Position numbers and translations under genes: made by a program
The notes under the pieces: generated by a model
The model's input: only the letters and a program-made list of their open reading frames with translations
Told to the model about the DNA's origin: nothing
Database searches by the model: none
Shown here: piece by piece, positions 6,210 through 59,652 of the stretch
How positions within the stretch are numbered: position 1 is the first letter of the stretch
How the letters are laid out: each line of letters begins with the position of its first letter
Assembly (NCBI GenBank): GCA_965287045.1
Contig: OZ336882.1
Coordinates: 72,912,001-72,976,000 of the forward strand
Length of the DNA stretch: 64,000 nucleotides
Source of the DNA: Carcharhinus amblyrhynchos
Lineage: Eukaryota
Reading direction: 5' to 3'

Positions 6210-6292
6210 TTGTTTATTCACTACTTGTAATTAATCTCTGTCTTAGCTAATTAGAAATTTTCTCAAGGGACGGATTCTTACTGCTATAAATA
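6210..6292 (+). promoter_or_regulatory. Putative proximal promoter of GPCR gene 1: forkhead site, TAATTAAT, CTAATTAG, O/E-like site, TATA box
   Basis: TGTTTAT (6211), GTAATTAATC (6227-6236), CTAATTAG (6247-6254), TCTCAAGGGA (6261-6270), TATAAATA (6285-6292) ~100 bp before the ATG; the module is conserved upstream of genes 2-4. Confidence 0.6.
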
Positions 6293-6385
6293 ATTGTACG
6301 ATTACTTCTCTCTGGTCAATATCAATTGAGATCTTATAATCCTGTTGTATAAGCTAGACTCCAGAGCTCTCAGTGTAAGTAACTC

Positions 6386-6482
6386 ATGGAAAGATGTCAA
6401 GTAACCGGACAAATTATCTTGAATGCATTGTATAAATTTGAAAAGATATATTATCCGCTCCTGGCTGCTGTTGGCGTTCCTG
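6386..6482 (+). CDS. GPR139-like GPCR gene 1, exon 1 (MERCQVTGQIILNALYKFEKIYYPLLAAVGVP+G)
   Basis: ATG 6386 with an in-frame stop upstream; IYYPLLAAVGVP is the start of TM1; donor G|gtgagt at 6482/6483, phase 1, matches the acceptor at 10348. Confidence 0.85.
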
Positions 6483-10348: not shown

Positions 10349-11271
10349 CGAATTTAGTAACGATTGTGATCTTCTCTCGGGGAAAGTGTGGTCTCTCCAA
10401 ATGCGTCACCCATTATTTGGTGGCCATGGCAGTTGCTGATCTACTGGTCGTTGTCATGGATCTGGTACTAAGACATATTCCAGTTGTCTATTGGCGCCAA
10501 TTTGTGTTTTTGTGGCAAGTTCCCTTGTGTAATATCCATGCCGTCTTCATTTACGCAGCAACAGATTGTTCTGTGTGGTTCACTGTGTCATTCACCTTTG
10601 ATCGATTTGTGGCTATTTGCTGCCAGAAGCTGAAAATCAAATACTGCACAGAGAAAACAGCAGCTATAATAATTGGAACACTGACAGTGCTCTTCAGTTT
10701 AAAGAATATTTTCTGGTACTTTCTCTACAGAAGTGAATATCTGCTTATCAATTACCCCTGGTTTTGTTTCATACCAAGTAGTTCATTATTCTCACAGGCA
10801 TGGATAACTATAGAATTCATTCATTATCTTATAAACCCTCTTCTTCCATTTGTTTTGGTTATATTATTCAATGCATTAACTGTCAGACATATCTTAGTGG
10901 GTAGCAGAGCCCGACAGAGGCTGCAGGGTCATGTCGAGGGAAACAGGCACCATGACCCAGAGATGGAGAGTCGAAGGAAGTCAATGACTGTGCTGTTTGT
11001 CATATCTGGTAATTTCATATTGTTATGGACAGTGTTTCTAATTTATTCTGTGTGGCGTCGGATGTGGTATTTAGGTTTTCGATCTTTACGGATGCATGAA
11101 TTTGTTAGAGAATTGGGCTTCATGCTTCAGCTGCTGAGCTGCTGTACAAATACCTACATTTATGCCATGACCCAGACTAAATTCAGAGTGAAGTTGTATT
11201 CTGCACTAACATGTGCCTTCACTCTAATTAATGCATTATTTAAACGAATCGCTGAAATAAAGGCTCCCTGA
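10349..11271 (+). CDS. GPR139-like GPCR gene 1, exon 2 (spliced product 339 aa, 7TM class A)
   Basis: Polypyrimidine tract + cag acceptor at 10348; reads A-NLVTIVI (N1.50), AMAVADL (D2.50), C3.25, FDRF, LLPF (P5.50), LW (6.48), NTYIY, KFR helix 8; open to TGA 11271. Confidence 0.9.
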
Positions 11272-14029: not shown

Positions 14030-15690
14030 ATTGGCATTGGTAGTCATCTTGTTCTGGACAGCTGCTGATAATGCAGCAGCCTGTATCATTTCGAAATGTT
14101 ATCCTCTAGAAAGCAGGCACCATCTCCTGCTTCATTTCTTCGAGCCCTGTTTTTTTTGTTTTTGGTTGAAGCTTTCACAAAATGTCTCTCAGAGCAAATT
14201 GCATCCATTTTAGAAATTCAAGATACATGCTTTAAATGAGAAATACTTATAATACACATGGAGCTGTTTTCTACAGAAACAACCCTTGTCAGTGCTCTCC
14301 ATAGACTAGAATCATTCCTTCTTAATTCAGTGTCATGTTCCTGTTCCTAAACCTATGGGCTTGTGCTTTCTTATCCTAATAGGCCACTTGCATTATTAGC
14401 ACCACTTCCCCCAACCCCACCCCCCACCCTGTCTCCCTCTTACTTGGCCATCGACTAAGCACAAACTAAGAACACTAAATAGATGGTTCTAAGAATCTAA
14501 CTTTAGTCCTCATTAATTCTTTGACTTTTTTTAAGTTTCCCCTTCCTTACCTTCACAGTCGTCACTGACGTTGTAACTTCGGTGGACTTGGAAAGTTACG
14601 CACATCCATGTTTGATTAGGTCCACAATTACTGCTAACACTGAGATCACGATAAAAAAAAATAATCCCTTGAAGGATCGATGTTTCCAGAAGGTCTATCC
14701 ATCTAAGGAAAATGGTGCAGGGCCTTTGAGTTTTCAATCTCTTTCTTGGTGTGCACAAATAGTTTACTTACATTTTCTGAACGGTCTGGTATATAAGTGT
14801 AACATACGGATCCAACTACGGCACAGGTTCTCCCCTTGTTGACGAGAGGCAATCCAATGCAATTTTATGTTGAAGTCCCTCTGTATGGATGACAACCATC
14901 CCATAATTGATACTCACGAAGATGATTTCTCTCCTGACAGCTTGTTCTCAATTTAGTTCAGATTTGTAATCTTTCGCATTGCTTTAACATTCAATAGTGC
15001 TTAAACGTTAATACAAAAGGAGTACTCCTCTCATAGCTCGCAGACGTCTTGGCAGGCGAAGGAGTTTATATCTGTACGATGTTCTTTCTCCTAAAACTTT
15101 CCCCGTGAGGTGAGGTCCCAGATTTGAATCTAAGTGAAGATCCAACCTAGGTATTATCTCATTTCCGAATCAAAGCCACTCTATTGGCTGCAGAATCTTT
15201 GCATGGAAACCAGGTAGACCGATCAATGGCCACCAGTTAATAGGTATTTCCTTGCGCTCTGTGCAAGGGCCCTGTAAACTCCGTCTGTCTATTTCCCCAT
15301 AGTCCTTTAGTCCGTGGTTGCTTTCCAACTTGGACCCTGAAGGGATGACCTGATTCCACTAAGGTGTACTGCAGGTACCTTTGACAATCACGCCACATCT
15401 CCTTGTCATTATACCTGCGGCTCCAGCCTGTGTGTGCTAATCCGTGAAATGCCTCCAATACACGCTTGTGTATTTCTTCTGGGGCCATTATTTTGTCTTC
15501 CCTTCTCCGTACGCCATCTTAACCTCTCTGTCCTCCATGTTTTCCCATTCCTGCTTCTCTTTCTCTGAAAGTGTACCGCCAGAAACCTCTTTTAGTCTCG
15601 CTGTTGGACTCCTGGAAAGGCTTGTGGTTCTCATTCTCCCCATATCACTTTCACCTCTAGCCTCTTCTCCTTTAATCAGATCTTGTTAAT
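14030..15690 (-). mobile_element. Internally deleted endogenous retrovirus relic (integrase + env TM), copy 1
   Basis: ORF 15237-15488 gives the integrase His-His motif (EAFHGLAHTG) then FTGPL..AQGNTY-LVAIDR; at 14875-14775 env TM reads LQHKIALDCL/xGRTCAVVGSVCYTYIPDRSENV (ISD + CX6C[C>Y]), followed by a hydrophobic anchor. LTR not delimited. Confidence 0.8.
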
Positions 15691-16317: not shown

Positions 16318-16540
16318 GGTTTTGCTCAGCTGGCTGGGCGTCTGGATTGTGATGCAAATCAACGCCAAAAGTGCAATGCCAATTCCTGTGCTGGCGTAAA
16401 TTAGTTATAAAGACCTAACTTTTCAACCTTGCTCTTTGTCTTAGATGTCGTGATCCTCAGGTTAAATCATCACCAGCGACCAATTATCTTCTCAGGGGAA
16501 ACCAGCCTATGGTCACCTTGGAGTATGGCTATATTGACTG
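16318..16540 (+). mobile_element. tRNA-derived SINE, decayed (related copies at ~20875, ~37495, ~53895, ~61895)
   Basis: gctcagctggctgg...tgtgatgca...caattcc...tcaacctt...atcctcaggttaaatcatcaccag...cagcctatggtc. Confidence 0.5.
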
Positions 16541-17010
16541 AATCTATATTGTATAGACGATCACCAATGCATCCGTCATCTCCACGGCAACTTGTTTGAA
16601 CACTTGGAATGCACATAATCAATTCTGAGGATTTGAAAATTGTAAGCCCCATTTAATTCTCAAGCGCGAATATTTATGCATATGAATTTCCTTCAGTTTT
16701 TTTTCAGTCCTAGGCCACTATGAGTCCACTGGGTCAATATTAATTCCATTATATTTCTCGGATCTCCCCTTCTGAGAGCAGGTTCTCATTCTTTGGGATT
16801 TCACCTGCACCATTATAATTTCTGTTGTCCTTTCCAAGAATGGAGAAACGTTAGCCCTTGCTAATATCTTCCTTCTCATACCTATAGAAGGTTTCACAAT
16901 GAGCAGTTGTGTTGTTCGCCAGTACACTTTTAAATTCCATTCTCTTTCTTGATCAGTTTTTTTTTGGGGGGGGGGGGGCAATTTCGTTGAATTCATTAAC
17001 ACACTGTTGC

Positions 17011-18309
17011 ATTAAAGGGAAGTCGTGTCTGACAAATTTACTGGAGTTCTATGAGGATGTGTCTAGGGCGGTGGATAGAGGAGAGCCGGTGGATGTGGTC
17101 TTTCTTGATTTTCAGAAGGCGTTTGACAAAGTACCTCACAAGAGGTTATTGCAGAAGGTCGAGGGACATGGATTTGGGGGTAGGGTGTTAGCGTGGATAG
17201 AGGATTGGTTGTCAAATAGGAGGCAGAGAGTGGGGGTCAACGGGTGCTATTCGGATTGGCGGATGGTGACTAGTGGAGTGCCCCACGGGTCGGTGCTGGG
17301 GCCTCAGCTATTTACCATTTATATAGATGATCTGGAGGAGGGAACCGAGTGTAGGGTGTCGAAATTTGCTGATGACATCAAGATTGGGGGAACGGCAAAT
17401 TGTGCGGAGGGTGTGGAGAGTCTGCAGAAGGATCTAGATAGGCTGGGCGAATGGGCCAGGAAATGGCAAATGGAATTTAATGTTGGCAAGTGTGAGGTGG
17501 TCCACTTTGGTAGGAAGAATGGTAGGAAGGACTATTACTTACGGGGCGAAAAACTGCAGCAGGCGACGGTGCAGAGGGACCTCGGGGTCCTTGTGCATGA
17601 GTCGCAAAAACCCAGCCTACAGGTGCAGCAGGTGGTCAGGAAGGCGAATGGGATGCTGGCCTTCATAGCGAGGGGGATTGAATATAAAAGTAAGGAGGTC
17701 TTGCTGCAGCTGTATAGGGCATTGGTGAGGCCGCAGCTGGAGTACTGTGTGCAGTTTTGGACGCCGCACCTGCGCAAAGATATTTTGGCCTTGGAGGGAG
17801 TGCAGAGGAGGTTTACTAGGCTGATACCGGAGTTGAGGGGGTTGAGCTATGAGGAGAGGCTGAATAAACTGGGCTTGTACTCGTTAGAGTTTAGAAGAAT
17901 GAGGGGAGATCTCATTGAGACGTATAAAATGATGAATGGGATGGATAGGATAGAGGTGGAGAGACTCTTCCCGCTCAAAAAAGACAGTAGGACTAGGGGG
18001 CACAGCCTCAAGATAAAAGGGGGGGGGGCGGTTTAGAACGGAGTTGAGGAGGAACTTCTTCACTCAAAGGGTGGTGAATCTCTGGAATTCTCTGCCCGTT
18101 GAAGTGGTGGAGGCTGCCTCGCTAAATATTTTTAGGACGCGGGTTGATGGGTTTTTGATAAGAGAGGGGATTAAGGGTTATGGGGGGAGGGCGGGAAAGT
18201 GGAACTGAGCAGCGACAGATCAGCCATGATCTTATTGAATGGCGGGGCAGGCTCGAAGGGCTAGATGGCCTACTCCTGCTCCTATTTCTTATGTTCTTAT
18301 GTTCTTATG
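17011..18309 (+). mobile_element. Young 5'-truncated CR1 LINE (RT C-terminal half, 3' UTR, (TATGTTCT)n tail)
   Basis: Open RT ORF: LDFQKAFDKVPH, SGVPHGSVLGP, SKFADD, LVRPQLEYCVQFW. The frame breaks only in the G10 run at 18019-18028; the remainder (RFRTELRRNFFTQRVVNLWNSLP...KWN*) ends at TGA 18206-18208; tail tatgttcttatgttcttatg. Confidence 0.95.
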
Positions 18310-22830: not shown

Positions 22831-23285
22831 TTGAAAAAAGGTTCATTGTAAGAGGGCTTCAGTACAGAAAAAAAGAAGATATCTGATTGGAGCTGTCTCT
22901 GGCTTTGATGAAACCACAACAGTGTTAGTGTTTAGTCGCTGCTATTAGCATCGCTATAAGATGAGCAACAGAAATGCCAAACAAACTTCAAAACAATCAC
23001 GTTAGAGTCGCATAACTATCGGCGAAAGCAGCGTTGGGATGTACCAGTCACATTTTTACTGAGTTAGCACCAATAACAGAATCTTTTAATGCCATTGCTG
23101 ACACTTTCAAGCATTTTCCATAAGCTACTTTTTTTTCCCAAAATATCAAACTCACAACCCGAAACACTTCAGCTCCGGGGATTTTGGTGCGTCAAGAGTG
23201 CAGTTCCTCTGAGATTCCAAAACATTCCACTTGGTGACTTCAAAGAGGGTCTGGACCCGGGTGCAATGAGGAAAAAAATACACCT

Positions 23286-23358
23286 TTATTTGTTCAGTTA
23301 CAGTAATTAATCACGTGCAACATTATGTCACTAGCAGGGACTAGAAAGTTACATAAAT
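23286..23358 (+). promoter_or_regulatory. Putative proximal promoter of gene 2 (forkhead, TAATTAAT, E-box, CATAAA)
   Basis: TATTTGT 23287, GTAATTAATC 23303-23312, CACGTG 23312-23317, CATAAAT 23352-23358; ungapped 20/27 match to gene 1 6210-6236. Confidence 0.6.
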
Positions 23359-23435
23359 GGGGCTCATTGACACTTGAGAGATCTACTTTGCGTGGAACAT
23401 AAGAATTCGGAGGGAAATCCCCACCTCTTCATGAA

Positions 23436-23505
23436 ATGGTGCACGCCGCAATCCTGCAAATAAAGGACATTTACTATCCTCTGCTTGCGACCTTTGGTGT
23501 TCCAG
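23436..23505 (+). CDS. GPR139-like GPCR gene 2, exon 1 (MVHAAILQIKDIYYPLLATFGVP+G)
   Basis: gaaATGg Kozak context; IYYPLLATFGVP; donor CCAG|gtaagt at 23505/23506, phase 1. Confidence 0.88.
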
Positions 23506-25132
23506 GTAAGTCCGAGTATATCCTGTCGATGAATAGGTATGAGACTATCTGAGAGCTTGAAATTTATTTCGCTGGCCCAGAATTGTCTTCCTATGTGTAC
23601 AGTTGGCAGCTCTTCTCTCTTCCCAATAATAACTGTAAAAGCTTTATATGCAATGAATGATTATTCGAGCTACAGTCACTTCCATCCCACCTCTTGGAAA
23701 GATAATTTGTCGATCATTTATTTAAAGAACAACAAACGCTTCAATGTGCATCCGGAGTTTCCTCCACGTGGTTTAACTCACCACTGAAGATCTCGTCATG
23801 TTATTGTGGGATGTACTCAGGCTCTGACAGGTCACGGTGGAGTACATTATGTAGCCGGGTGTAAACCATCGGCTGTATCTAGCTCCCAGGCAGCCTTTCA
23901 GGTGGCTGTCGATGTTAAAGGTGCATATTAAGGCGACAAAGAAGAACATGTCCTCAGGCTTCTTTGCCGAGCTGCTATGTTACTCTACAATGAAACGATG
24001 CAACATGAAAACAATTCCTGGCCATCTCTATGGGCCAGGGGGATTTCATGAGCTTCAGCAGGCATGAGCAATATAAAACGAAGTTTTGGAGTAATTTCCA
24101 CGATTTGACACATGTAGGTATAATGACAGTAAGTGAAAAAAAATCTTAAATGTCGTCATTCGCTTCCGGTTGTGCCACAGAATAGATGATGCGGCATCCA
24201 TGTCTCTCAGATTGTTTTTGCAGTGATTCGAACTCAACATGAGGAAATCCCTCTTTTTTTGCCCTGATGCCAACTGCCAGAAATGAATATCTACTTCAGC
24301 CTTTTAGCTCTTCCCAGTAATGACACAAATTATTCCGGGCCATTATTTGGAATTGCAAATGTCAGCTGGAAAAAAATGACAAGGAAACACATTACAGCCC
24401 AGTTGTGGTTTCCCCATAGGCCTTGGCTAGTGATTAATCCCCGCTCCATTATTCAGGTTTACGGATATGTGCAAGAAAAAAAATCTTCATGGATAGGACA
24501 GGAATGCTGAAGTCAAGCAGTAAGCGTTGGAGATAAGCAACACGTCAGGTGGCACATGGTGCTCAGGAGACAGGGGAGGACAGTCACCAAGCATAAGTGA
24601 GTATGGGACAGGACCATGGTGACGCTAAATGTGGAACTACATGCAAGCTAAACAAGTGACATAATGAGAAAAGAAAGAATTAGCATTTATACTTCTATTG
24701 ACAGCCCACAGAATTGAAAGGTTACCTCTGCTTCACTTTCCACACAGGCTGCCTGAATTGATTTCCAGCATTCCGGCACTGCACTCAGTGTTACGGAAGA
24801 ATCTCCCGCTTGTGTGTCGCTGTTGAATATTCCCCTTCAATCAGTGCTTAAAACTTGTAATACTACTCCCCCACCAACCCCCGGCCTTCTTCCACGCCCC
24901 CCATGCCTTTCCTCAGCTCCTTTGTTCCTTTATGTTCTCCAACAACGTCGATTCCCTTTTCTTCTGGGAGAGATTATTTAATTTGGTATTGATTTTTACC
25001 CGTTTATTCCCTCATTCCCATTAAAGTGTTCTGTTTACATGGCACATGCACACACTCTGCTAAGTAGTCAAAGAGACAAACCTATCTTTTAGATTGACGA
25101 AAGTGTTCTTATTTTCCTTCCTCTTCTTGCAG

Positions 25133-26028
25133 CGAACATTATGACCATCGTGATCCTCTCCAGAGGAAATTGTGGTCTCTCCAAATGTATCTCTGTCTAC
25201 ATGGTGGCTATGGATGTAGCGGATCTGCTGATCATGGTGTTCAATGTAGTCGTATATCTGATCTTCAATTATCACTTTCCGTACTCCATTCTGTCTTACA
25301 CTGCTGTGTGTAAGTTCATTCTGTACATGACTTTTGTAAATTTGGATATGTCAGTGTGGTTCACAGTTTCATTTACATTTGACCGCTTTGTTTCCATCTG
25401 TTGTCCGAACTTTAAAGAGAAATATTGCGCAAAGAGAACTGCAACTACGATTATAGTGACGGTCTTCGCCTTGACCTATTTAAAAGGTGCCCCGATGTTC
25501 TTTTCGTACGAAGCTGAACGAATCATTGACAATGTGCACTGGGGCTGTTGGACAACGCAGGCCGTTTATAGATTGCCCGCATGGTCTGTGTACAGCTGGA
25601 TGCAGTCGAGCTCAGTTGTGCTGCTGCCTTTTGCTCTCATGATGCTGTTTAATTCTTTAACCGTCAGACGTATTTTGTTGGCAAATCGTGTACGCAGAGG
25701 CCTCCGGAGTAGTGGAAATGAGAATCAGAGTGATCCCGAAGTGAAGAGCCGAAGAAAATCCATCCTTCTACTCTTCACGATATCAGGCAGCTACATAATT
25801 TTGTGGTTAACAACTGTTGGGAGTTTTGCGGCCACCAGAATGTCGAACAGCGTTTACCATCAAGGAGATTACTCCAATCCGGGATATATCGCCACCGAGA
25901 GTGGATATCTGCTCATGTACCTGAGTTCCTGTTCTAACACCTGCATTTATGTAGCGACCCAAAGGAAATTCAGAGGAGAACTACAGAATGTGCCGAAATT
26001 TCTTGGGCATATTTTTCCAAATTGGTGA
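25133..26028 (+). CDS. GPR139-like GPCR gene 2, exon 2 (spliced 321 aa; altered C-tail, possibly impaired)
   Basis: Acceptor ttccttcctcttcttgcag|CG AAC ATT ATG; 7 TMs, FDRF, NTCIY, QRKFR. A 1-nt loss at ~26002 relative to gene 3 changes the tail; AATAAA at 26051 and 26169. Confidence 0.85.
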
Positions 26029-28100: not shown

Positions 28101-28914
28101 TAGCAACGGTGCGGGATGTCCTGGAACATAGACGATCCGCTAACTGTATCTTCCAGAACGGGGTGAGTATATTTTGATAAAAAAAACAAAAACATGTTCA
28201 CCTTACATTTCAATCGGGAGGTGCACTATAGATTGTCAAAATTCAGAATATATCTGAACTCTTGTGGGGTCGAAAAGGTAAAACTGGTTGCTGCTGTTCT
28301 GCACTTACAGGGAATGAAAGTGTGACAGTAAAGAGGCGCGCTTACTTCGGGTGGGGGTGGGGTGGGGTGCGGGGTGGGGGCAGGGTGGAAACGACCTGGT
28401 TACGCTCGAAGAGAAACAGAGGCGTTACTGTTCTGAAGTTTTTAAGAAAGGCCGTGGAAAGGAATGCTAAATTAAAGGGGGAAAGTTACACCTCCGACAG
28501 GAGCAATTGGTTTAATTTAGTATTGTCAGAAAACAAAAAAAAAGTTGGGGGAATCAGGAAATAGAGGGAAAATAACCACTTAATTTACTTATAGAACTCG
28601 GGAAATTAATAAAAAGAACTCAAAATTTTGTGGACACCAACAAAGGGTTTAACATCAATAAAACACTTAAAAATCAAGTTATGTTTTCTGTGTTAAAAAA
28701 AGGGCACATTGTCAAAAAACGAAATGCTGTAAACAAGCCAAGTTTGAAACAATCAGAACGTTAAGCCATTCAGTTCTATTCAGGATGAATCTTCGTGTTT
28801 TAAAAAAAATGCAGCAAATGATAGGAATTTTTCATTCAAATCTCAATACAATCGGAAAGGGGAAAATGTTTATTCGAAGTTACACAAAAAAAGGTGGGTG
28901 GCGAAGTTTAAACG

Positions 28915-31135
28915 TAAGAACTAAGAGTTCGAGTAGACCATCCGGCCCCTCGTGCATGCTCCCCCTTCAGCAAGATCATGGGTGGTTTTTTTCGAGGACT
29001 CGGCTCCACTTAGCAGCCCACTAACCATGGCCCTTCATTCCATTACTATTCAAAAAATTATCTATCCTTGCCGTAAAAAAAAGTGAATGAGGTAGCCGCA
29101 ACTGTTTCACTGGGCTGGAAATTCCACAGATTCACAACACTTTGTGTGAAGATGTTCCTCCTCAACTCAGTCCTAAATCTGTTTCCCCTTCTTTTTAGGC
29201 CACACCCCCAGTTCTACTTTCATCTGCAGTGGAAATAATTTCCCTTTTTCTACCATATCTAATCCCTTCATAATCCCATATCTTTCTATATGATCTCCCC
29301 TGATTATAATGAGTCTAGTCCCAATCTACTCAATCTCTCCTCATAAGCCAAACTTCTCAACTTCGAAATCAACCAAGTGAATTTCCTCGGCATCCCCTCC
29401 AGTGCGAGTAAATTCTTTCTCAGGTAAGGAGATCAAAACTGTACACAGTACTTCAGGTGTCGTCTCACCAGAACCTTATATAGTTGCAACAGAACTTCAC
29501 TTTTGTTTTTAAACTGCATCCCTCCAGCAATGAAAGATAACAAATCATTTGTCTTCTTAATGACTTGCTGCACCTTCAAAACAACTCCTTGCGATTCATG
29601 CACAAGGATACCCAGGTCGCTCTGCACAGCAACATGCTGCAATATTTTGCCATTTAATAATCATCAGTTGTGCTGTGTTTTCTGTTCTTACCAAAATGGA
29701 TGACGTCACATTTAGAAATATTCCTCTCCATCTACCAGATCCTTGCCTATTCATTTGACTATTATAGCCCTTTGCAGACTTTCAGAGTCCTCTGCACACT
29801 TTGCTCTGCCACTCATCTGAGTGTCATCTGCAATTTTCTTGACAAACTACACCTGGTCCCCAACTCCAAATCATCTGTGTAAAGCGTAAACAATTGTAGT
29901 CCCGTCACTGATCCCTGAGGCACATCAGTCGCCACCGATTGACAATCGGAAAAACAGCCATTTACCCCGAGTCTTTGCTTCGTGTTAGGAAACCAATCTT
30001 CTATCCGTGCTTATACATTACCCATGACACGGTGCACTTTTGTCTGATGCAGCAGTCTTTGGTGCAGCAACTTGTCAAATGCCTTCTGGAAATCCAGAAA
30101 CATTACATCCACAGATTCCCCATTGTCCACCGCACGTGTAACGGTCTCAAAGAATTCCACCAAATTAGTCAAACATGACCCTTCTTTCATGAACCCGTGC
30201 TATGCCTTGCTGATGGGACAATTTACACCTAGATGTTTCGCTATTTTTTCCCTGGTGATAGATTCAAACATTTTGCCTACTATTGAATTTAAGCTAACCG
30301 GTCTATAATACTCGCCGTTTATCTACCGTCTTTTTTAAAACAATGGCATCACATATGCTATGTTTTGACACAAAATACTGCTCAATTCCTCAGCCATTTT
30401 CTCATTTTCAGTTAGTGCATCTCCCATCTCGTCCACGAAAGGATCAATAATTATTTTAGCCACCCTTTTTCGTTTTATATATTAACAGAAATGTTTGCTC
30501 TCTGTTTTTATACTCTGAGCTCATTTACTGTCATATTCTATCTTACCTTTCGGTCTAACTTTTTAATGCCATTATGGACCCTTAAATATTTCCCAATCCT
30601 CTAGTTTCCCACTAATCTTTGAGACTCTGTATGTATTTTCTTTCAATTTAATACCCGCCTTTCTTTGCTTCGATGTCCATGGCTAATTATATCTTTTTCT
30701 GCAGTCCTTCCTTATCACTGGTAGATACCTTTGTTGTGTACTGTGAAAAATCGCTTTGAAAGTCCTCCACTGTTCCTCAATTGTCCCACCATAGCTTTTT
30801 GCTCCCAGTCTACCTTAGTCAATTCCTCCTTTATTCCATTGTATTCTATTCTGTCTTACGCACAGCCACGGGTATTGGATTTTACCTTCTCACACTCCAT
30901 CTGTATTTTAAATTCAAGAATACTGCGATTGCTTCTTCCGAGGGGATCCCTAACTGTAAGATCAATAATTATTCCTGTCTCATTATACAGGGCCATATCT
31001 ACGATAGCATGGTCTCTCATACCTTCCATTACAAACTGTTCAAGGAAGCTATCACAGATGCATTCTGTGAACTCCTTCTCGAGGCTGCCTTAACCGACTT
31101 GGTGTGAACATTGACATATAGATTAAAATCCCGAT
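28915..31135 (-). mobile_element. Old CR1 LINE, unit A (paralogous copy ~45606-48120 in unit B)
   Basis: Minus ORF QSDLGILVHESQ...LLQLYKVLVRRHLKYCVQF; cttgtcaaatgccttctggaaatccag is antisense LDFQKAFDK. Confidence 0.85.
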
Positions 31136-31339: not shown

Positions 31340-32955
31340 ATTTAAACATGAATAGCCGTCTTGTTCCGGACAACTCCTGATAATGCAGCCTGCATTCACT
31401 CGAAATATTGTCCTCTGGAATGCAGGCACTATCTCATTCTTCATCTCCACAAGGCCTGCTGTGTTTTGCTGTTGTCTGAAACGCTCACACAATGTCACTA
31501 AAATGAAATTGCGTCCACTTTATAAATTCAATATTCATGTTTTAAATGAGAAATAATTTTTATTCATATGGTGCTGTTTGTTAAACAGCAGCCCTTGTCA
31601 GGCCTCTCCATAACCTAAGATCGTTTACTCTCAAGTCAGTTTAGTTAGTATTAGTAAACCTTTGGTCCTGGGTTTTACAAGCCGATTCCGCACTTTCTGC
31701 CCCCACCCGCCCCCGTCCACATCATTTGCCGCTCTCGGTCGTTGGGCAAAGACCTCCTGAAGCAACTAAATGGATATTTCTCAGTATCTAAACTTAGTTC
31801 TTACTACTTCTTTCGAATTTCCTATTTCTCCCTTCCTTACCCTATCTGCTGTCACTGATGCTGTAACGTCGGTGGATTTAGAAAGTCGTGGAAATCAATT
31901 TGTGATTAGATGTACAATTACTCCTAACATTAGGATCACAATTAAATAATAAACTTCCTTGAAGGAACGATGAATTCAGAGAAACTATCCAGCCTGGAAG
32001 CCAAGCACCTAAGGTAAATAGTGCAAGGTCTTTGTGTTTCCCACCTCCATCTTCATGGATACAACTAGATTACATACGTTTTCTGAACTCTCTTGTATAT
32101 AAGTGCAAATACTCTTCCAATTACTGCACATATCTCTCCTCTTGCTGCCTAGGTACAATCCAATGCCATACAATGTTGAAGTCCCTCTGTACGCATGACA
32201 ACCATCTCATGAATGATCATCTTGAGGGCAGTTCCTGTATTGACAATTTGTTCCCAATGTAGGTGAGCTTTGTAATTTCTTGCATTGTTCGAAGCACTCC
32301 ATATTGGGGAAACGTTATTGCAAAACCCGGGCTCCTTCTATCATAGCTCGCCAGCATCTTGGCATGTGAGTGAGTTTATATATTTACAAAGCTTTCTTCG
32401 TTTCACAAATATCCCTGAGAATTTGGTTCCCAGATCAGAATCCAACAGTAGAGGCATGCCTGAACGAAGTATTATTTCATTCATTAACCAAAACCATTGT
32501 TTTTGGCTGTAGCATCTTTGCACGGGAATGCTTCAACCTAACATTGAGGCTGCTAAATGATCACCACATAAGAGGTCTTTCCTTACACTTTGTGTAAGGA
32601 CCCTTTGAAATCCCTCTGCTTATTTCTCCATGGCCCTTTAGGTCATGTCGGATTACCCATCTTGACTCTGCAGCGATGACGTGATTCTACTCGGATGTAC
32701 TACTCGCTATATCTCCTCGTTGCTATATATGTGGTCCTTCTCTGTGTGCACTAATCTGTGATATGTCTTCAATAAGTTTTGTTGCATTACTTCAGGGGTT
32801 GTTATTTCGTGTTCCCTTCTCCATACGCCATTTTGACCTCTCTGCCCTCCCCGTTTTCCCATTCCTGTTTCTCTTCTTTTGTGGCCTGTTCCTGAATCTC
32901 TTTCACATCAGTATCTGTGATTTCCTGGCTTGTGCTGGTTTCCTGGACAGGTTTA
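31340..32955 (-). mobile_element. Internally deleted ERV relic, copy 2
   Basis: Colinear with 14030-15630; the minus strand near 32220-32050 reads EMVVMRTEGLQHCMALDCT*AARGEICAVIG/CTYIQESSENV. Confidence 0.75.
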
Positions 32956-38300: not shown

Positions 38301-40363
38301 TAGTAAATACTTCGAATCGAACAAAGACAATTCTGGAAGGGCAGCTTACATAAAAGGTGGCTATCACATTTCTAATTAAATGAAGTTAAAGTGCTGAAGC
38401 AGGTAATGTTGAAATCGGTAATTCTGGGTCACAGACTCCGGGTGAGCATCCGATGACATTGATATAGGTGTCGATTTGAAGCATTGCTTTGAAATAAGCC
38501 AGGTTTCCAAATCAGTCCTTATTGCTGACCACTTCCAGCCCAGCATCCTCCCAGATTTCCTTGTCTGATTCTAGTACCACACTCCACAATTTCCTTCTCG
38601 CTCACATACCGATACAACTCCCTCCTCATTGCCCATTCACCTTAACTTGGCATGGATTGAGAATTGTTGAGCAGACTGAAAACAAAGGGTAGGGAGAAAT
38701 GAACATTTTCGAAGTTACAGGCAGTGATTTCGGGAACCCTCAGGGATCTGGGCTTGGGTCCAGCTATTTAAAAGATGCTTCAATGATTTTGATGAAGGAA
38801 CCAAAAATAACATTGGCAACTTTACTCTCACAAGACTTGTGAGGAATATGAGTGTTGTGAAGGATGCTCAGAGGCAGCAAATTGATTCAGGCAAGTTAAA
38901 TATGCGGGAAAACACGTTACAGATGCCGTACAATGTAAGTAAATGTAATGTAAATAACGTTGGACAGAGAAAAATAATGTTAGAATACTATTTATATCGT
39001 GATAGATGGGAAACGGTCGACAATGAAGGAGACCAAGATGTCGTTGTATACCAGACATTAAGGAAATCATGCAGGCAAGGCAAGCAGATAGGTGGCAATT
39101 GATAGGCTGGCCTTCATTGAAAGAGGACTTTAGTGAAGGAACAAGAATGTCGGGCTGGAGATGTCCAAGGCTTTGGTGAGAACACGACAGAAGTATTGTG
39201 TGCAGTTTTAGCCTCATGATCTGAGAAAGAAGTGGAGCTAATTGACATCGGACTGAATTCAGGGAAAGCGTGTTTCCAGCATGAGATGAGAATGAGTTGA
39301 ATGTACATGCATTAACTGGAAATTAGAATAATTTGAAAATGCAAAAATATTTGACATGTTTGGAAAGATTGGATGTTGGGATGCCTTTTCGATGGCAGAG
39401 TGGGAAGGGGCTCAATAATGAGATGTCACGACTTTTGGATATTGGTGGGCCATTAACGATTGAGGTGAGGAGAAACGTCTTCACTCAGAGGGTGATGAGC
39501 CTGTGGAATTCTCTACTACAGATGATGGTGGTGGTATATAAACTGAATATATTAAATAGCAACATGTAGGCAGACCAGGATAAGTTCAGGAGGTTGAAAC
39601 CAGATAGGGAGGGATTTTCGTCTGAGGAGACGTTGAACAGCTTGTGCCTGTTTAAAAGAATGAGAGACGACCTTATTGATGCATATAATACTCATCGACC
39701 TTCTTGAGACATATAAGGGGCTTGACAGGATGGATGCTGAAACAGGGATTCTCCTTGTGGGACGGTCTTGGACTAGAGGGCATTATCTCAGCGGAAGGGG
39801 TCGTCCGTTTAAGACAAAAATGAGGTGTAATTTCTTCTTCCAGAGAACCCTGAATCCATGGAAAACTTAGATGCGTGGGCGATCGTGGCTGTGTCGTTAC
39901 GTATATCCACAGCTGAAAAAAGGTTCATTGTAAGAGGGCTTCAGTACAGAAAAAAAATGACATCTGATTGGAGCTGTATATGGCTTTGTTGAAACCACAA
40001 CATTGTTAATGTTTAGTCGCTGCTATTAGCATCGCTATAAGATGAGCAACAGAAATGTTAAACTGACTTCAAAACAATCATGTTAGAGTTGCATAACTAT
40101 CAGCAAAAGCAGCGTTGGGTTGTACCAGTCACATTTTTATTGAGTTAGCACCAAGAACAGAATCATTTGATGCCCATGCTGACACTTCTAAGCATTTTAT
40201 ATAAGCTATTTCTTTTTCAAAAACATCAAACCCAGAACCCGACACACTTCAGCTCCAGGGATTTTGGTGCGTCAAGTGTGCACTTCCTCTGAGATTCCCA
40301 TACATTCCGCTTGGTGACTTCAAAGGGGGTCTCGACCCGGGTGCAATGAGGAAAAAAAAACCT

Positions 40364-40436
40364 TTATTTGTTCAGTTACAGTAATTAATCACGTGCAACA
40401 TTATGTCACTAGCAGAGACTAGATTGTTACATAAAT
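40364..40436 (+). promoter_or_regulatory. Putative proximal promoter of gene 3
   Basis: TTATTTGTTCAGTTACAGTAATTAATC 40364-40390, CACGTG, CATAAAT 40430-40436. Confidence 0.6.
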
Positions 40437-40513
40437 GGGGCTCATTGATCCTTGAGAGATCTACTTTGCGTGGAACATAAGAATTCGGAGGGAAATTCCC
40501 GCCTCTTCATGAA

Positions 40514-40583
40514 ATGGTGCGCGCCGCAATCCTGCAAATAAAGGACATTTACTATCCTCTGCTTGCGACCTTTGGTGTTCCAG
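40514..40583 (+). CDS. GPR139-like GPCR gene 3, exon 1 (MVRAAILQIKDIYYPLLATFGVP+G)
   Basis: gaaATGg; donor CCAG|gtaagt at 40583/40584. Confidence 0.88.
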
Positions 40584-42177
40584 GTAAGTCCGAGTATATC
40601 CTGTCGATGAATAGGTATGAGACTATCTGAGAGCTTGAAATTTATTTCGCTGGCCCAGAATTGTCTTCCTATGTGTCCAGTAGGCAGCTCTTCTGTCTTC
40701 CCAATAATAACTGTAAAACCTTATATGCAATGAATGATTATTCGAGCTACAGTCATTTCCATCCCACCTCTTGGAAAGATAGTTTGTCGATCATTTGTTA
40801 AAAGAACAACAAATGCTTCAATGTGCATCCGGAGTTTCCTCCATGTGGCTTAACTCGCCACTGAAGATCTCGTCATGTTATTGTGGGATGTACTCAGGCT
40901 CTTACAGTTCAATTTCGAGTACACCATCGGCTGTATCTAGCGCGCAGGCAGCCTTTGAGGTGACTGTCGATGTTAAAGGTGCATATTAAGGCGGTAACGA
41001 CTGATATGGACTCAGGCTTCTTTGCCGAGCTGCTATGTTACTCTACAATGAAACGATGCAACATGAAAACAATTCCTGGCCATCTCAATGGGCCAGAGGG
41101 ATTTCATGAGCATCAGCAGGCATGAGCAATATAAAACGTAGTTTTGGAGTAATTTCCACAATTTGACACACGTAGGTATAATGACAGTAAGTGAAAAAAA
41201 AACTTAAATATCGTCATTCGCTTCCGGTTGAGCCACAGAATAGATGATGTGGCATCCATGTCGATCAGATTGTTTTTGCAATGATTCGTACGCAACATGA
41301 GGAAATCCCTCTTTTTTTTGCTTTGATGCCAACTGCCAGAAATTAATATCTACTTCAGCCTTTTAGCTCTTACCAGTGATGGCACAAATTATTCCGGGCC
41401 GTTATTTGCTGGAAAAAAGTGACGAGGAATCACATTACAGCCCAGTTGAGGTTTCCCCATAGGCCTTGGCTAGTGATTAATCCCCGCTCCATTATTCAGC
41501 TTTACGGATATGTGCAAGAAAAAAAAAATCTTCATGGATAGGACAGGAATGCTGAAATCAAGCAGTGAGCGTTGGAGATAAGCAACACGCCAGGTGGCAC
41601 ATGGTGCTCAGGAGAACAGGGGAGGACAGTCACCAAGCATAAGTGAGTATGGGACAGGACCATGGTGACGCTAAATGTGGAACTACATGCACGCTAAACA
41701 AGTGATATATTGAGAAAAGAAAGAATTAGCGTTTATGCTTCTATTGGCAGCCCACAGAATTGAAAGGTTACCTCTGCCTGCCTTTCCACATCGGCTGCCT
41801 GACTTGATTTCAATCATTTCTGCACTGCGCTCACTGTGAAGGAAGAATCTCCCGCTTGTGTGTCGCTGTTGAATATTCCCCTTCAATTGGTGCTTAAAAC
41901 TTATAATACTCCTCCCGCACCACACCCCGACTTTCTTCCACGTCCCCCATGCCTTTCCTCTGCTCCTTTGTTCCTTTATGTTCTCCAACGCAGTCGATTC
42001 TTTTTTCTTCTGGAAAGATTATTTAATTTGGTATTGATTTTTATCAGTTTATTCCCTCATTCCCATTAAAGTGCTCTGTTTACATGGCACATGCACACAA
42101 TCTGCTAAGTAATCAGAGAGACAAACCTTTCTTTTAAATTGACTGAAGTGTTCCTATTTTCCTTCCTCTTCTTGCAG

Positions 42178-43106
42178 CGAACATTATGACCATCGTGATC
42201 CTCTCCAGAGGAAATTGTGGTCTCTCCAAATGTATCTCTGTCTACATGATGGCTATGGCTGTAGCGGATCTGCTGGTCATGGTGATTAGTGTACTGCTGT
42301 GTCACATCTTCGGTTATCAGTTTCCGAAATCCTTTTTGTCCTACACTGCTGTTTGTAAGTTCATTCTGTACAGTGGTTATGTTAATTTGGATATGTCAGC
42401 GTGGTTCACAGTTTCATTTACATTTGACCGCTTTGTTTCCATCTGTTGTCCGAACTTTAAAGAGAAATATTGCACGAAGAAAACTGCAACTACCCTTATA
42501 GTAACGGTCTTCGCCTTGACCTATTTAAAAGGTGTCCCTATGTTCTTTTCGTACGAAGCTGAACGAATCATTGACAATGTGCACTGGGGCTGTCGGACAA
42601 CGCAGGCCGTTTATACATTGCCCGCATGGTCTGTGTACAGCTGGATGCAGTCGAGCTCAGTTGTGCTGTTGCCTTTTGCTCTCATGATGCTGTTTAATTC
42701 TTTAACCGTCAGACGTATTTTGTTGGCAAATCGTGTACGCAGAAGCCTCCGGAGTAGTGGAAATGAGAGTCAGAATGATCCAGAAGTGAAGAGCCGAAGA
42801 CAATCCATCCTTCTACTCTTCACGATATCAGGCAGCTACATAATTTTGTGGTTAACAGCTGTTGGGAGTTTTGCAGCCACCAGAATGTCGAGCAGCGTTT
42901 TCAATCAAGGAGATTACTCCAATCCGGGGTATATCGCCACTGAGACTGGATGTCTGCTCATGTACCTGAGTTCCTGTTCGAACACATGCATATATGCAGC
43001 GACCCAAAGGAAATTCAGAGGAGAACTAAAGAATGTGCTGAAATTTCCTTGGACATATTTTTCCAAATTGGTGAATGATAAGAAAGAACTTAAGACAAAC
43101 CAATGA
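42178..43106 (+). CDS. GPR139-like GPCR gene 3, exon 2 (spliced 332 aa, intact)
   Basis: Acceptor cttgcag|CG at 42177/42178; 70+929 nt = 333 codons; full 7TM with FDRF, NTCIY and helix 8; AATAAA ~43220. Confidence 0.92.
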
Positions 43107-45993: not shown

Positions 45994-46276
45994 TTAAGGA
46001 CACAGATTTAAGGTGCGGGGAGGGAGGTTCAGAAGTGATGTTAGGGGTAAGTTTTTCACTCAGAGGGTCGTGAGTGAATGGAATCGGCTGCCGTCAGTGG
46101 TGGTGGAGGCGAACTCGCTGGGGTCTTTTAAAAGACTTCTGGATGAGTACATGGGGTTTAATGAGATTGAGGGTTATAGATAGGTCTGTAGGTTGGTAGG
46201 TGTTGATGTGATCGGCACAACTCGTGGGCCGAAGGGCCTGTTTGTGCTGTAGTGTTCTATGTTCTATGTTCTATGT
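45994..46276 (+). mobile_element. Young 5'-truncated CR1/HER1-type LINE end with 6-bp TSD
   Basis: TAAGAT at 45988-45993 and 46277-46282; (GTTCTAT)n tail; absent at the matching unit A site (~29290). Confidence 0.9.
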
Positions 46277-54600: not shown

Positions 54601-57600
54601 TCCGTAAACTATCTGAAAATGATATTAAGGAATAATGCGAAGCGTTTGATGTTCCAACATGGCTAACACGTGGTACTGCAAACCAGCAGAGACAGTTTAG
54701 TAAATACTTCGAATCGAACAAAGACAATTCTGGAAGGGAAGCTTACATAAAAGGTGGCTATCACATTTCTAATTAAATGAAGTTAAAGTGCTGAAGCAGG
54801 TAATGTTGAAATCGGTAATTCAGGGTCACAGACTCCGGGTGAGCATCCAATGACATTGATATAGGTGTCGATTTGAAGCATTACTTTGCAATAAGCCAGG
54901 TTTCCAAATCAGTCCGTATTGCTTACCACTTCCAGCCAAGCCTCCTCCCAGCTTTCCTTGTCTGATTCTAGTATCACACTCCACAATTTCCTTCTCGCTC
55001 ACATACCTATCCAACTCCCTCCTCATTGTCCATTCACCTTAACTAGGCATGGATTGAGAATTGTTTAGCAGACTGAAAACAAAGGGTAGGGACAAATGGA
55101 CATTTTCGAAGTTACAGGCTGTGATTTCGGGAACCCTCAGGGATCTGGGCTTGGGTCCAGCGATTTCAATGATGCATCAATGATTTCGATGAGGGAAGCA
55201 GAAATAACATTGGCAACGTTTCTCTCACAAAACTTGAGCGGAACCTGTGTGGCATGGAGGATGCTTAGAGATAGAAGTTGATTTAGGCAAGTTAAGTGTG
55301 CGGGAAGACACATTACAGATGCCGTACAATGTGGGCAAATGTAATGTAAGTAACGTTGGACAGAGAAAAAGAATGTTAGAATATTATTTATATCGTGATA
55401 GATGGGGAAGTGTCGACAAGGAAAGAGACCTAGATGTCGTTGTATACCAGATATTAAAGAAATCATGGAGGCAAGGCAAACAGACAGGTGGTAATTGATA
55501 GGCTGGGCTTCAATGAAAGATGACTTCAGTAAAGGAACAAGAATGTCAGACTGGAGATGTCCAAGGCATTGCTGTGAACACTACAGAAGTATTGTGTGCA
55601 GTTTTGGCTCATGATCTGAGAAAGGAGTGGAGCTAATTGACACTAGAGTGATTTCTGGGAAAGCGTGTTTCCAGCATGATATTAGAATGAGTTGAATGTA
55701 TATGCATTAACAGGAAATTAGAATAATTTGAAAATGCAAAAATATTTGACATGTTTGGAAAGATTGGATGTTGGGATGCCATTTCGATGGCAGAGTGGGA
55801 AGGGGCTCAACAATGAGATGTCACGACTTGTGAATATTGGTGGGCCATTAACGATTGAAGTAAGGAGAGACATCTTCACTCAGAGGGTGGTGAGCCTGCG
55901 GAATTCTCTACTACAGATGATGGTGGTGGTAAATAAGCTGAATATATTTAATAACAACATGTAGGCAGACCAGAATATGCTCAGTAGGTTGAAACTAGAT
56001 AGAGAGGGATTTTCGTATGAGGAGACGTTGAGCAGCTTGTGCCTGTTTAAAAGAATGAGAGACGACCTTATTGATACATATAATACTCATCGACCTTCTT
56101 GAGACACATCAGGGGCTTGACAGGATTGATGCTGAAACAGGGGTTCTCCTTGTGGGACGGTCTTGGAGTAAAGGGAATTATCTCAGCGGAAGGGGTCGTC
56201 CGTTTAAGACAAAAATGAAGTGTAATTTCTTCTCCCAGAGAATACTGAATCCATGGAATACTTCAATGCGTCTGCTTTCAAGGCTATCTCGTTAAGTATG
56301 CGCAAAGTTGAAGAAAAGGCTCATTGTAAGAAGGCTTCAGTACAGAAAAAAAATGGTATCTGATTGGAGCTGTGTAAGTCTTTGGTGAAACCACAACAGT
56401 GTTAATGTTTAGTCGCTGCTATTAGCGTCGCTATAAGATGAGCAACAGAAATGTTAAACTAACTTCAAAACAATCATGTTAGAGTCGCATAACTATCAGC
56501 GAATGCAGCGTTGGTTTGTACCAGTAACTTTTTTTTATTGAGTTAGCACCAATAACAGAATCATTTAATGCCAGTGATGACACTTTCAAACATTTTCCAT
56601 CAAGCTATTTATTTTTTTCGAAAATATCAAACACAGAACCTGAGACACTTCAGCTCCGGGGATTTTAGTTCGTCAAGAGTGCACTCCCTCTGAGATTCCA
56701 ATCCATTCCGCTTGGTGACTTGAAAGCTTGGTGCTGAGGGGAATCATTACCGAATATCTGGACCCGGGTGCGATGAGGAAAAAAAAATACATCTTTATTT
56801 GTTCAGTGACAACAACTAATCACGTGCAACATTATGTCACCTGATTTTACTAGCAGAGACTCGATTGTTACATAAATGGGGCTCATTGATACTTGAGAGA
56901 TCGACTTTGCGTGGAATATAAGAATTCGGAGACAATTCCCCTCCTCTTCCTAAAATGGTGCGAGCCGTAATCCTGCTAATAAAGGACGTTTACTATTCTC
57001 TGCTTGCGGCCTTTAGTGTTCCAGGTAAGTCCGAATATATCCTGTCGATGAATAGTTATGAGACTATCTCACTGTTGCGTCGTCACTGAACATTTTAACA
57101 ACTTGCCCATCATAATATCATAAAGAGCTACACCAAAATTTCATGCAGGAGGCGAGACATCATCCAGGTGAACAAATCGCGGACAACGGCAGCTTGAAAT
57201 TTATTTCCCGGCCCAGAATTGTCTTCCTATGTGTACAGTAGGCAGCTCTGCTCTGTTCCCAATTATAAGTGTAAAGGCTTTATATGCAATGAATGATTAT
57301 TCGAGCTACAGTCATTTCCATCCCACCTCTTTGAAAGATAATTTGTCCATCATTTGTTTAAAGAGCAACAAATGCCTCAATGTGCATCTGGAGATTCCTC
57401 CAGGTGGCTTAACTCGCTCCTGAAGATCTCGTCATGTTATTGTGGGATGTACTCAGGCTCTTACCGTTCAAGGTGGAGTACATTATGCAGCCAGGGGTAA
57501 ACCATCGGCTGTATCTAACGCCCTGGCAACCTTTGAGGTGGCTGTCGATCTTAAAAGCTCATTTTAAGGCGATAAAGACCAACATGTCCTCAGCTTCTTT

Positions 57601-59652
57601 GCCGAGCTGCTATGTTATTCTATAATGAAACGATGCAACATGAAATCAATTGCTCGTCATCTCAATGGGCCAGAGGGATTTCACGAGCTTCACCAGGCAT
57701 AAGCAATATAAAACATAGTGTTGTAGTAATTTCCACGATTTGATACACGTAGGTATAGTGACAGTAAGTGAAAATAAAATCTTATATGTCGTCACTGGAC
57801 TCCACTTGTGCCACAGAATAGATGATGTGGCATCCATGTCTCTTAGATTATTTTTGCACTGATTCGAACTCAATGTGGGGAAATGCCTTTTTTTGCTCCG
57901 ATGCCAACTGTGAGAGATGAATATCTACTTCACCCTTTAAGCTCTTCCCATTAATGGTACGAATTATCTGGAATTGCAAATGTTCTTTGGAAAAACAAAT
58001 TGACAATGGAAATCATTAGACCCCCGTTGAAGTTTCCCTGTATGCCTCCGAGGGTGATTAACCCCCGTCCATTATTCAGCTTTACGGATATATACAACAA
58101 CAGCAAAAAAAGACATTATGGATAGGAGAAGAATGCTGAAATCAAACAGAAAGCGTTGGAGATAAACACCACGTCAGGTGGCACATGGTGCTCAGGAGAA
58201 CAGGGGAGGACAGTCACCCAGCATACCTGAGTGTCAGCAGCACCATGGTGACGCTAAATGTGGAACTACATGCACGCTAAACAAGTGATATAATGAGAAA
58301 AGAAAGAATTAGCGTTTATACTTCTATTGACAGCCCACAGAATTGAAAGGTTTTCTCTGCTTGCCTTTCCACATAGGCTGCCTGACTTGATTTCCAGCAT
58401 TTTTGCACTGCGCTCACTGTTGAGGAAGAATCTCCCGCTTGTGTGTCGCTGTTGAATATTCCCCTTCAATCGGTGATTAAAACTTATAATACTCCTCCCC
58501 CACCACCCCCCCAGCCATCTTCCACGCCCCCCATGCCTTTCCTCTGCTCCTTTCTTCCTTTATGTTCTCCAACATAGTCGGTTCTTTTTCCTTCTGGTAG
58601 AGATTATTTAATTTGGTATTGATTTTTATCCTTTTATTCCCTCATTCCCATTAAAGTGCTCTGTTTCCATGGCACATGCACACACGCTGCTAAGTAGTCA
58701 AATAGATAAACCTTTCTTTTAGATTGACTGAAATGTTCTTATTTTCCTTCCTCTTCTTGCAGCGAACATTATGACCATCGTGATCCTCTCCAGAGGAAAT
58801 TGTGGTCTCTCCAAATGTATCTCTGTCTACATGGTGGCTATGGCTGTAGCGGATCTGCTGATCATGGTGTTCAATGTAGTCGTGTATCTGATCTTCAATT
58901 ATCACTTTCCGTACTCCATTCTGTCCTACACTGCTGTTTGTAAGTTCATTCTGTACATTGCTTTTGTTAGTTTGGATATGTCAGTGTGGTTCACAGTTTC
59001 ATTTACATTTGACCGCTTTGTTTCCATCTGTTGTCCGAACTTTAAAGAGAAATATTGCACGAAGAGAACTGCAACTACGATTATAGTGACGGCCTCAGCT
59101 TTGACCTATTTAAAAGGTGTCCCTATGTGCTTTTCGTACGAAGCTGAACAAATCATTGACAATGTGCACTGGGGCTGTCGGACAACGCAGGCCGTTTATA
59201 CATTGCCACTCAATGTGGTTCTGAATTTATGTTATGGAGCTTAACCAGTTATTCTATAAAATTAATTTTATGCTTACGTTGGTGTATTGACAGCTTACAT
59301 TATGCCCCAGTTTAAGGATGGTGGAGATAAAACTCATGAATTGCTTACCTCTCCCCCTACCTAACACGCCTGTGCTTCAGCTCTCATTCTCGCTGCCTTC
59401 ATCGCTCTCTTTCGAAATCGGTTTCTTTTTCTCTCTCGCTTTTACTGCATCTGTTTTATTCATACAAAGCCAGGAGATAAGGCATTCTCCCTCATTTCAC
59501 TGAATTTCCCAATGACACATTTCCAATTCTTTTTGCACTTGTTCTCCCTTCATACAGGCCTCAGCTTAATACATATGTTGTCTCACTCACTTCACTCCTA
59601 AGGTCATGCTTCCACTGCGATTCAAATGCATATTGTCACTTGTCAGCACAAG
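51641..59652 (+). repeat. Tandem segmental unit C (~8.0 kb, shortened by deletion; contains gene 4)
   Basis: Colinear with units A/B up to 59207, then jumps to the sequence matching 34186/51185. Confidence 0.9.
56955..59244 (+). pseudogene. GPR139-like GPCR gene 4, truncated in ECL2 (exon 1 56955-57024, exon 2 58763-59207, 11 foreign codons to stop)
   Basis: Exon 1 MVRAVILLIKDVYYSLLAAFSVP, donor gtaagt 57025, acceptor 58762; homology to genes 2/3 ends at ...AVYTLP and TM5-7 are missing. Confidence 0.9.

Follow-up and report, generated by a model that had tools for sequence, protein, structure and literature searches.

The promoters of a tandem cluster of genes for G-protein coupled receptors (GPCRs) in the shark Carcharhinus amblyrhynchos appear, as read from the DNA, to combine homeodomain, O/E (Olf1/EBF) and TATA-like elements in the layout of odorant-receptor (OR) promoters, on a receptor family that is not an OR family. 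The predicted O/E sites and this OR-like layout on a large shark receptor expansion are, as we read them, what is new here; the proteins themselves are already in databases. Because public annotations contain these proteins, the family counts as known to databases and undescribed in the literature searched, in which (few subscription journals and part of the supplements being covered) we found no description of the expansion or of its promoters.

The window, that is, the whole stretch of 64 kb that was analyzed, holds four two-exon class A GPCR genes, all on the plus strand (Table 1). Each has a short coding exon 1 ending in GVP and a long exon 2, which encodes a rhodopsin-family GPCR in all four genes; no further exon or gene of the receptor family was found in the 64 kb. 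Gene 1 belongs to a different subfamily from genes 2–4. Tandem duplication in units of 16–17 kb gave rise to genes 2, 3, and 4 and to the beginning of a fifth unit, which are 87–91 per cent identical over kilobases. Because genes 2–4 are recent copies of about 90 per cent identity, we count them once, and the window therefore offers only two independent promoters. The start of the fifth unit occupies 59793–64000, and the window end falls 144 bp before that unit's core. A LINE-type reverse-transcriptase element lies between genes 1 and 2 (16903–18033), LINE-type copies lie within the repeat units (near 28911–30179 and 45603–47165, minus strand), and a second repeat family is found at 14041–15567, 31353–32875, and 48339–49883.

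Two of the genes carry lesions. A deletion of ~8.6 kb with 6-bp microhomology truncates gene 4 at 59207, within the second extracellular loop. In gene 2 (25133–26028), Asp stands in place of a nearly invariant Ala of TM2, and the loss of 1 bp near 26001 puts the C-terminal tail out of frame and makes it shorter; these lesions may impair the gene. The divergence between genes 2 and 3 is strongest around TM2-ECL1-TM3. At 25200–25299 (gene 2 coordinates; TM2-ECL1), gene 3 has 18 private changes per 100 bases where genes 2 and 4 agree, and this cluster could reflect either conversion from another paralog or diversifying selection at the ligand side.

Table 1. Coordinates of genes and promoter elements in the window.
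Feature	Position	Strand	Remarks
Gene 1, 27-bp core	6210..6236	+	forkhead-type site 6211–6219; TAATTAAT 6228–6235
Gene 1, second homeodomain-type site TAATTA	6248..6253		
Gene 1, O/E-type site	6260..6270	-	11/11 to published consensus TCCCYNGRGAR
Gene 1, TATA-like box TATAAAT	6285..6291	+	
Gene 1, coding exon 1	6386..6482	+	start codon agrees with closest homolog (P0123), first five residues the same
Gene 1, coding exon 2	10349..11271	+	whole protein 339 aa, class A GPCR
Gene 2, O/E-type core TCCCYNGRG	23173..23181	-	9 of 11 consensus positions; ~180 bp above TATA box
Gene 2, 27-bp core	23286..23312	+	forkhead-type site 23287–23295; TAATTAAT 23304–23311
Gene 2, CACGTG	23312–23317		directly after core
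Gene 2, TATA-like box CATAAAT	23352..23358	+	
Gene 2	23436..26028	+	exons 23436–23505, 25133–26028; 321 aa
Gene 3, O/E-type core	40253..40261	-	
Gene 3, core and CATAAAT box	within 40364..40436	+	core 40364–40390; box 40430–40436
Gene 3	40514..43106	+	exons 40514–40583, 42178–43106; 332 aa; no lesion seen
Gene 4, O/E-type core	56654..56662	-	intact
Gene 4, core	56795–56821	+	forkhead-type site intact, first TAAT lost
Gene 4, 10-bp segment and CATAAAT box	within 56795..56877	+	ancestral segment 56841–56850; box 56871–56877
Gene 4, pseudogene	56955..59207	+	exons 56955–57024, 58763–59207

Two homolog searches returned 559 and 2211 matches at E ≤ 0.001. Of the best 120 listed from each, 119 carry names, all of sharks or rays and nearly all 'probable G-protein coupled receptor 139'; by hand count, at least 77 clusters below 90 per cent identity among these best 240 come from one shark species. 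The 2211 clusters and a dN/dS of ~0.7 between genes 2 and 3 point to a large family with fast turnover. The genes group with the shark and ray 'probable GPR139' proteins and thus belong to a GPR139-related elasmobranch expansion. Searched as a profile of 25 members, the family has human GPR139 as its best solved-structure match (E = 4.2e-18; next match, 4e-12), and gene 3 alone matches human GPR139 at E = 2.2e-7. Only W241 of the GPR139 pocket residues F109, H187, W241, and N271 (named in the text available of PMC5430874) is present in the family profile consensus; gene 1 has His at the place of H187, as read from the alignment. Orthology with GPR139 was rejected given the low identity and the change of most pocket residues. 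Membership of the vertebrate OR family was likewise rejected: the best Pfam match is 7tm_1 with no olfactory family listed, there are two coding exons, and the nearest structure is that of GPR139.

A profile search at E ≤ 1e-30 gave 137 representatives. Twenty of these were looked up; the near ones are proteins of sharks, rays, and a skate, whereas salamanders, the coelacanth, and teleosts supply those at greater distance. A quick tree was built from 43 rows, canonical GPR139 not among them. In it, 33 shark-type rows form one group (88 per cent support) beside a salamander pair (99 per cent), apart from the coelacanth and teleost GPR139-like proteins; the nearest outgroup to the shark expansion is thus the salamander genes, and the root carries long-branch warnings. 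The non-shark GPR139-related lineages are represented by P0323 and P0387 (salamanders) and by P0333, P0338, and P0367 (coelacanth and teleosts). A protein atlas gave only the same database names. The exon-1 donor pattern had 0 matches in metagenome contigs, and the family alignment led to no confirmed locus among 461 candidates from metagenome contigs and 46 from prokaryote genomes.

Upstream of exon 1, an earlier note on this DNA had described a 27-bp core that joins a forkhead-type site to the homeodomain-type motif TAATTAAT. Its match between gene 1 and genes 2 and 3 is borne out at 20/27 positions, and all four 27-mers were found (gene 1 vs. gene 4, 17/27; gene 2 vs. gene 3, 27/27; gene 4 vs. 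genes 2 and 3, 23/27). The distances claimed from the core end to TATAAAT or CATAAAT also hold, being 49, 40, 40, and 50 bp in genes 1, 2, 3, and 4, and the mismatches do spare the forkhead consensus, since both versions of the core fit the extended pattern TRTTTRYTY. The TATA-like boxes lie 101 and 84 bp upstream of the start codons, and transcription of gene 1 is predicted to start near 6315–6318; in the subset of ORs that have a TATA box, the box stands 10–60 bp above a mapped start site. About 31 bp below CATAAAT, genes 2 and 3 carry CTACTTT (23383–23389 and 40461–40467), which resembles the initiator consensus and is altered in gene 4 (56902–56908). Genes 2 and 3 also have an out-of-frame ATG 5 bases 5' of the start codon (23431–23463 and 40509–40541), absent from gene 4, which opens an overlapping frame of 10 codons in a weak context. 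In the leader of gene 1, a donor-like GTAAGT (6374–6381) stands right before the start codon, and its use would skip the start.

Single elements are common in the window, with 30 occurrences of the forkhead pattern and eight of TAATTAAT. A count of all four motifs together was positive for genes 1–3 only, among 3187 windows; we discount it as evidence because three of its patterns were chosen from these same promoters. The core match was therefore compared with shuffled and real DNA. At fixed length, 20/27 was reached by 1/500 shuffled 300-bp pairs. With free length, the score of gene 1 against gene 2 was reached by 6/600 shuffles of 200 bp and 11/600 of 300 bp, and by 2/385 and 7/380 real non-promoter pieces of the window. 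When the comparison was anchored on the TATA-like box, 5/5000 shuffles reached the score within 12 diagonals and 1–2/5000 within 2 diagonals, the latter figure applying to the inferred ancestor; the anchored comparison of gene 1 with gene 4 was not significant (727/5000). One intronic T-rich site (41202, minus strand) likewise matches the gene 2 core at 20/27, and no other alignment at 18/27 or 12/15 was found between the 486-bp upstream regions of gene 1 and genes 2–4. The likeness of the two cores modestly exceeds chance.

The genes of the two promoters separated long ago. The proteins of genes 1 and 2 are identical at 133 of 316 positions (as proteins, the genes of the two promoters are 42–43 per cent identical), and their silent sites are near saturation, 35 of 55 four-fold sites being different and the NG86 dS being 2.8 or undefined. 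In a quick tree of 60 rows (the four genes and 56 of the 240 homologs, hand-picked for species spread from a set chosen by likeness to genes 1 and 3), gene 1 and genes 2–4 fall into two clades with 100 per cent support and ray proteins in each, which suggests that their split predates that of sharks and rays. Because neutral DNA would not align over such divergence, the core match is either selected or due to chance. The module that had been claimed as common to divergent paralogs is seen in two promoters, at a fixed distance to the TATA-like box in genes of such low identity; these are the only independent cases in the window, genes 2–4 being recent copies. A real shared module is, on balance, probable, and the cores of gene 1 and of genes 2–4 would then be homologous.

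Contigs from four DNA runs of related organisms (X5, X8, X22, and X23) were aligned on 22950–23650; 40 of 169 differences, 12 of 18 gaps, and 28 of 112 pieces were listed in this comparison. One X23 contig (888 bp, depth 7.8) spans 23272–23503; it shows 34 differences and is longer by 11 letters net, and its alignment ends at the splice donor. Its inserted letters reproduce the 10 bp found in gene 4 between core and box. Three X23 contigs are longer by 110–202 letters at the point of the intron at which gene 4, too, carries extra DNA, and genes 2 and 3 also lack 26-bp and ~118-bp pieces present in gene 4. The 10 bp and the intron pieces, being shared by the X23 contigs and gene 4, were therefore lost by genes 2 and 3, and the ancestral spacing was accordingly ~50 bp, within one base of the 49 bp of gene 1. 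The missing 10 bp had earlier been read as one helical turn. The loss itself is real and derived; since a short AC repeat stands at the ends of the lost segment, slippage accounts for it, and a helical-turn constraint is possible but unneeded.

At the core and its downstream edge, the X23 contig differs at 23302, 23303, 23309, and 23311–23313, keeping TAATT and not the rest; 5 of the 11 positions 23302–23312 are changed, and this copy therefore has no intact TAATTAAT. X5 and X8 have no change at 23302, 23303, and 23309 among the 40 of 169 differences listed, and the coverage of run X22 is confined to exon 1 (4/30 bins), with the promoter outside it. One half of TAATTAATC is preserved in gene 4 and altered in the X23 contig, and the reverse is true of the other half, so that parsimony assigns the full TAATTAATC to the ancestor of genes 2–4. 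The core changes in gene 4 are thus derived.

These changes had been presented as decay confined to the pseudogene, a claim that we reject. The 4/27 private changes of gene 4 fit its background of 6.7 per cent (P-value = 0.10), 14 per cent of 27-column windows are changed at least as much, and exon 1, with 7/70 private changes, and the leader, with 7/75, are altered as well. Identity of genes 2 and 3 over 27 columns is found in 18 per cent of windows. Gene 2 has coding lesions yet an intact motif, the X23 contig also alters TAATTAAT, and gene 4 itself retains the forkhead-type site, the O/E core, and the TATA-like box. The core changes in gene 4 do not detectably track function.

The gene 1 O/E-type site, absent from the earlier note, lies between the TAATTAAT and TAATTA sites and the TATA-like box. 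It was first spotted by eye through an EBF pattern and then checked against the consensus TCCCyngrgar as printed in Young 2011 (PMC3247239). The consensus has two matches in the 64-kb window against 1.12 expected, the second perfect match (16489–16499) lying away from any gene as an example of chance; in shuffles of the 300 bp of gene 1 a perfect match arose 34 times in 20000. Genes 2–4 have the 9-base core only, ~210 bp above the predicted start, and the core of gene 2 is seen in a loose end of run X23 as well. This core has seven matches in the window, of which four fall in the four promoters; 936/20000 shuffles gave the gene 2 core by chance, and the shortening was chosen after the site had been seen. 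The position of the O/E site differs between gene 1 and genes 2–4, and the varying positions of the core are CpG. Allowing two mismatches to the consensus gave 205 matches in the window, which is uninformative, and the perfect palindrome TCCCNNGGGA with one mismatch showed no enrichment in the window (16 vs. 17.6 expected). Thus, an O/E-type site lies within ~200 bp of the predicted start in both promoters, complete in gene 1 (11/11) and as the 9-base core in genes 2–4. The motif TAATTAAT of genes 1–3, lost in gene 4, is the core of the LIM-homeodomain V$LHXF consensus in Table 1 of Young 2011 (PMC3247239), so that genes 1–3 have a homeodomain site of the Lhx2/Emx2 type. Because of the O/E-type sites beside the homeodomain and TATA elements, the analogy to OR promoter motifs is stronger than when it was first proposed.

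We propose that the module would be a proximal TATA-type promoter, placed just upstream of exon 1 in the genes of a large GPR139-related family of elasmobranchs. Its forkhead-type and TAATTAAT homeodomain sites, ~50 bp above the TATA box, would have been inherited from an ancestor older than the shark–ray split and kept by selection. Fox and LIM-homeodomain factors would bind ~50–75 bp above the TATA box, an EBF dimer would bind nearby, at an O/E site of variable place within ~200 bp, and transcription would start ~30 bp below the box. LIM-homeodomain and O/E factors, perhaps with Fox, would allow expression of the genes in chemosensory neurons, those of olfaction being the most likely, as at an odorant-receptor promoter. 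The pointer to chemosensory neurons comes from the analogy to ORs and V1Rs, and the bound factors and the cell type are putative. For this explanation as a whole, olfactory neurons included, the analysis puts the chances a little short of even.

The promoter could also be real and shared, and serve another cell type: gut or islet endocrine cells, lymphocytes, or brain neurons. An endocrine code, as for the paralog GPR142, combines Fox with homeodomain factors, and a B-cell code combines EBF1 with FoxO and E-box factors. The E-boxes CACGTG and CACCTG in the spacer of genes 2–4 favor such a non-olfactory promoter, as does the forkhead site, which is not a reported OR-promoter motif in the available text of PMC3247239. 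Among relatives, GPR142 is described in islets and enteroendocrine cells (text available of PMC6323244) and GPR139 in habenula and hypothalamus (text available of PMC12208981 and PMC5430874). The combination of TAATTAAT, O/E, and TATA is that of ORs (PMC3247239, as far as available), and the size of the repertoire would fit chemosensation or immunity better than signaling in brain or islets. We hold a non-olfactory cell type to be unlikely, though well worth keeping in view. In bulk tissue, the level of an individual receptor gene is usually low. Catshark olfactory neurons are reported as nearly all microvillous and V2R-dominated (PMC10116579, in part), and no GPCR is among the 50 top genes given for a catshark library of brain plus olfactory tissue in the accessible part of PMC11979771; both speak against the olfactory reading.

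That the likeness of gene 1 and genes 2–4 is a coincidence of AT-rich promoter DNA and post hoc motifs, the promoters having evolved independently, strikes us as improbable. It would agree with an unanchored P-value of only 0.01–0.02, with the 20/27 of an intronic site in DNA whose upstream regions are otherwise unaligned, and with a non-significant pseudogene contrast and a relative's copy that alters the motif; it agrees poorly with a match that falls nearly on the TATA-anchored diagonal once the ancestral 10 bp are counted, and with the perfect fit of gene 1 to an O/E consensus taken from print. Far less credible is a T-rich core that acts as a splice signal (pyrimidine tract, AG, and branch-point-like TTAAT) for an upstream non-coding exon, the TATA-like boxes being incidental. 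The best-scoring AG upstream of the start codon does lie inside the core of genes 2 and 3 (23303 and 40381; 12/16 pyrimidines), but the gene 1 core has no AG, gene 4 and the X23 contig have lost it, and the core tracts are weaker than true acceptors: no strong acceptor was found within 250 bp upstream of any start codon, the best having 12/16 pyrimidines against 15–16/16 in true acceptors.

Sharks have large olfactory organs, yet of all vertebrate groups their olfactory receptor repertoires are the smallest known, with a mean of 43.8 genes; the catshark has 34 V2Rs and 4–9 of each other receptor family, and the small repertoire has been explained as a trade of range for sensitivity (text available of PMC10116579). 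OR-like promoter elements on a large GPCR family would, if true, supply a different answer. We consider it doubtful, although conceivable, that the elasmobranch GPR139-related expansion is an unrecognized olfactory receptor family, the fifth, which would exceed the known shark repertoire in size, descend from amino-acid sensors, and be controlled by an OR-like promoter of O/E, homeodomain, Fox, and TATA elements older than the shark–ray split. Should expression of the family lie in the immune system or the gut instead, its promoter is still a first handle on a big receptor expansion. With motif evidence from two promoters, the value of the proposal is that of a testable lead.

The closest known counterpart of the proposed promoter is that of mammalian ORs. 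In 314 mouse OR promoters, O/E and homeodomain motifs are enriched and TATA is found in a subset (Young 2011, PMC3247239, in part), an enrichment that compares with two independent promoters in the shark; the analogy also draws on part of PMC5404925. Shared with mammalian OR promoters are the O/E-type site, the LIM-homeodomain-type TAATTAAT, and the TATA-like box within ~200 bp of the predicted start, as well as the AT-rich promoters of a clustered multigene GPCR family with pseudogenes (PMC3247239). Unlike mammalian ORs, the shark genes are GPR139-related with two coding exons, and their promoter lies directly above the coding exon and contains a forkhead-type site whose distance from the homeodomain site is fixed. 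The words 'forkhead' and 'Fox' have 0 occurrences in the available text of Young 2011 (PMC3247239), and 'Forkhead' is absent from that of Michaloski 2011 (PMC3247230); a Fox site would therefore be an addition to an OR-type code. Mouse V1R promoters, too, carry O/E-like motifs near the start (Michaloski 2011, PMC3247230, in part), like the shark promoters on a chemoreceptor family other than ORs, and so the OR-promoter code can extend beyond ORs; the shark receptors are, however, unrelated to V1Rs. In their proteins they resemble GPR139 and GPR142, class A GPCRs that sense aromatic amino acids, human GPR139 being the best structural match of the family profile, but they differ from GPR139 in their low similarity to it, their mostly changed pocket, and the large clade of their own that they form.
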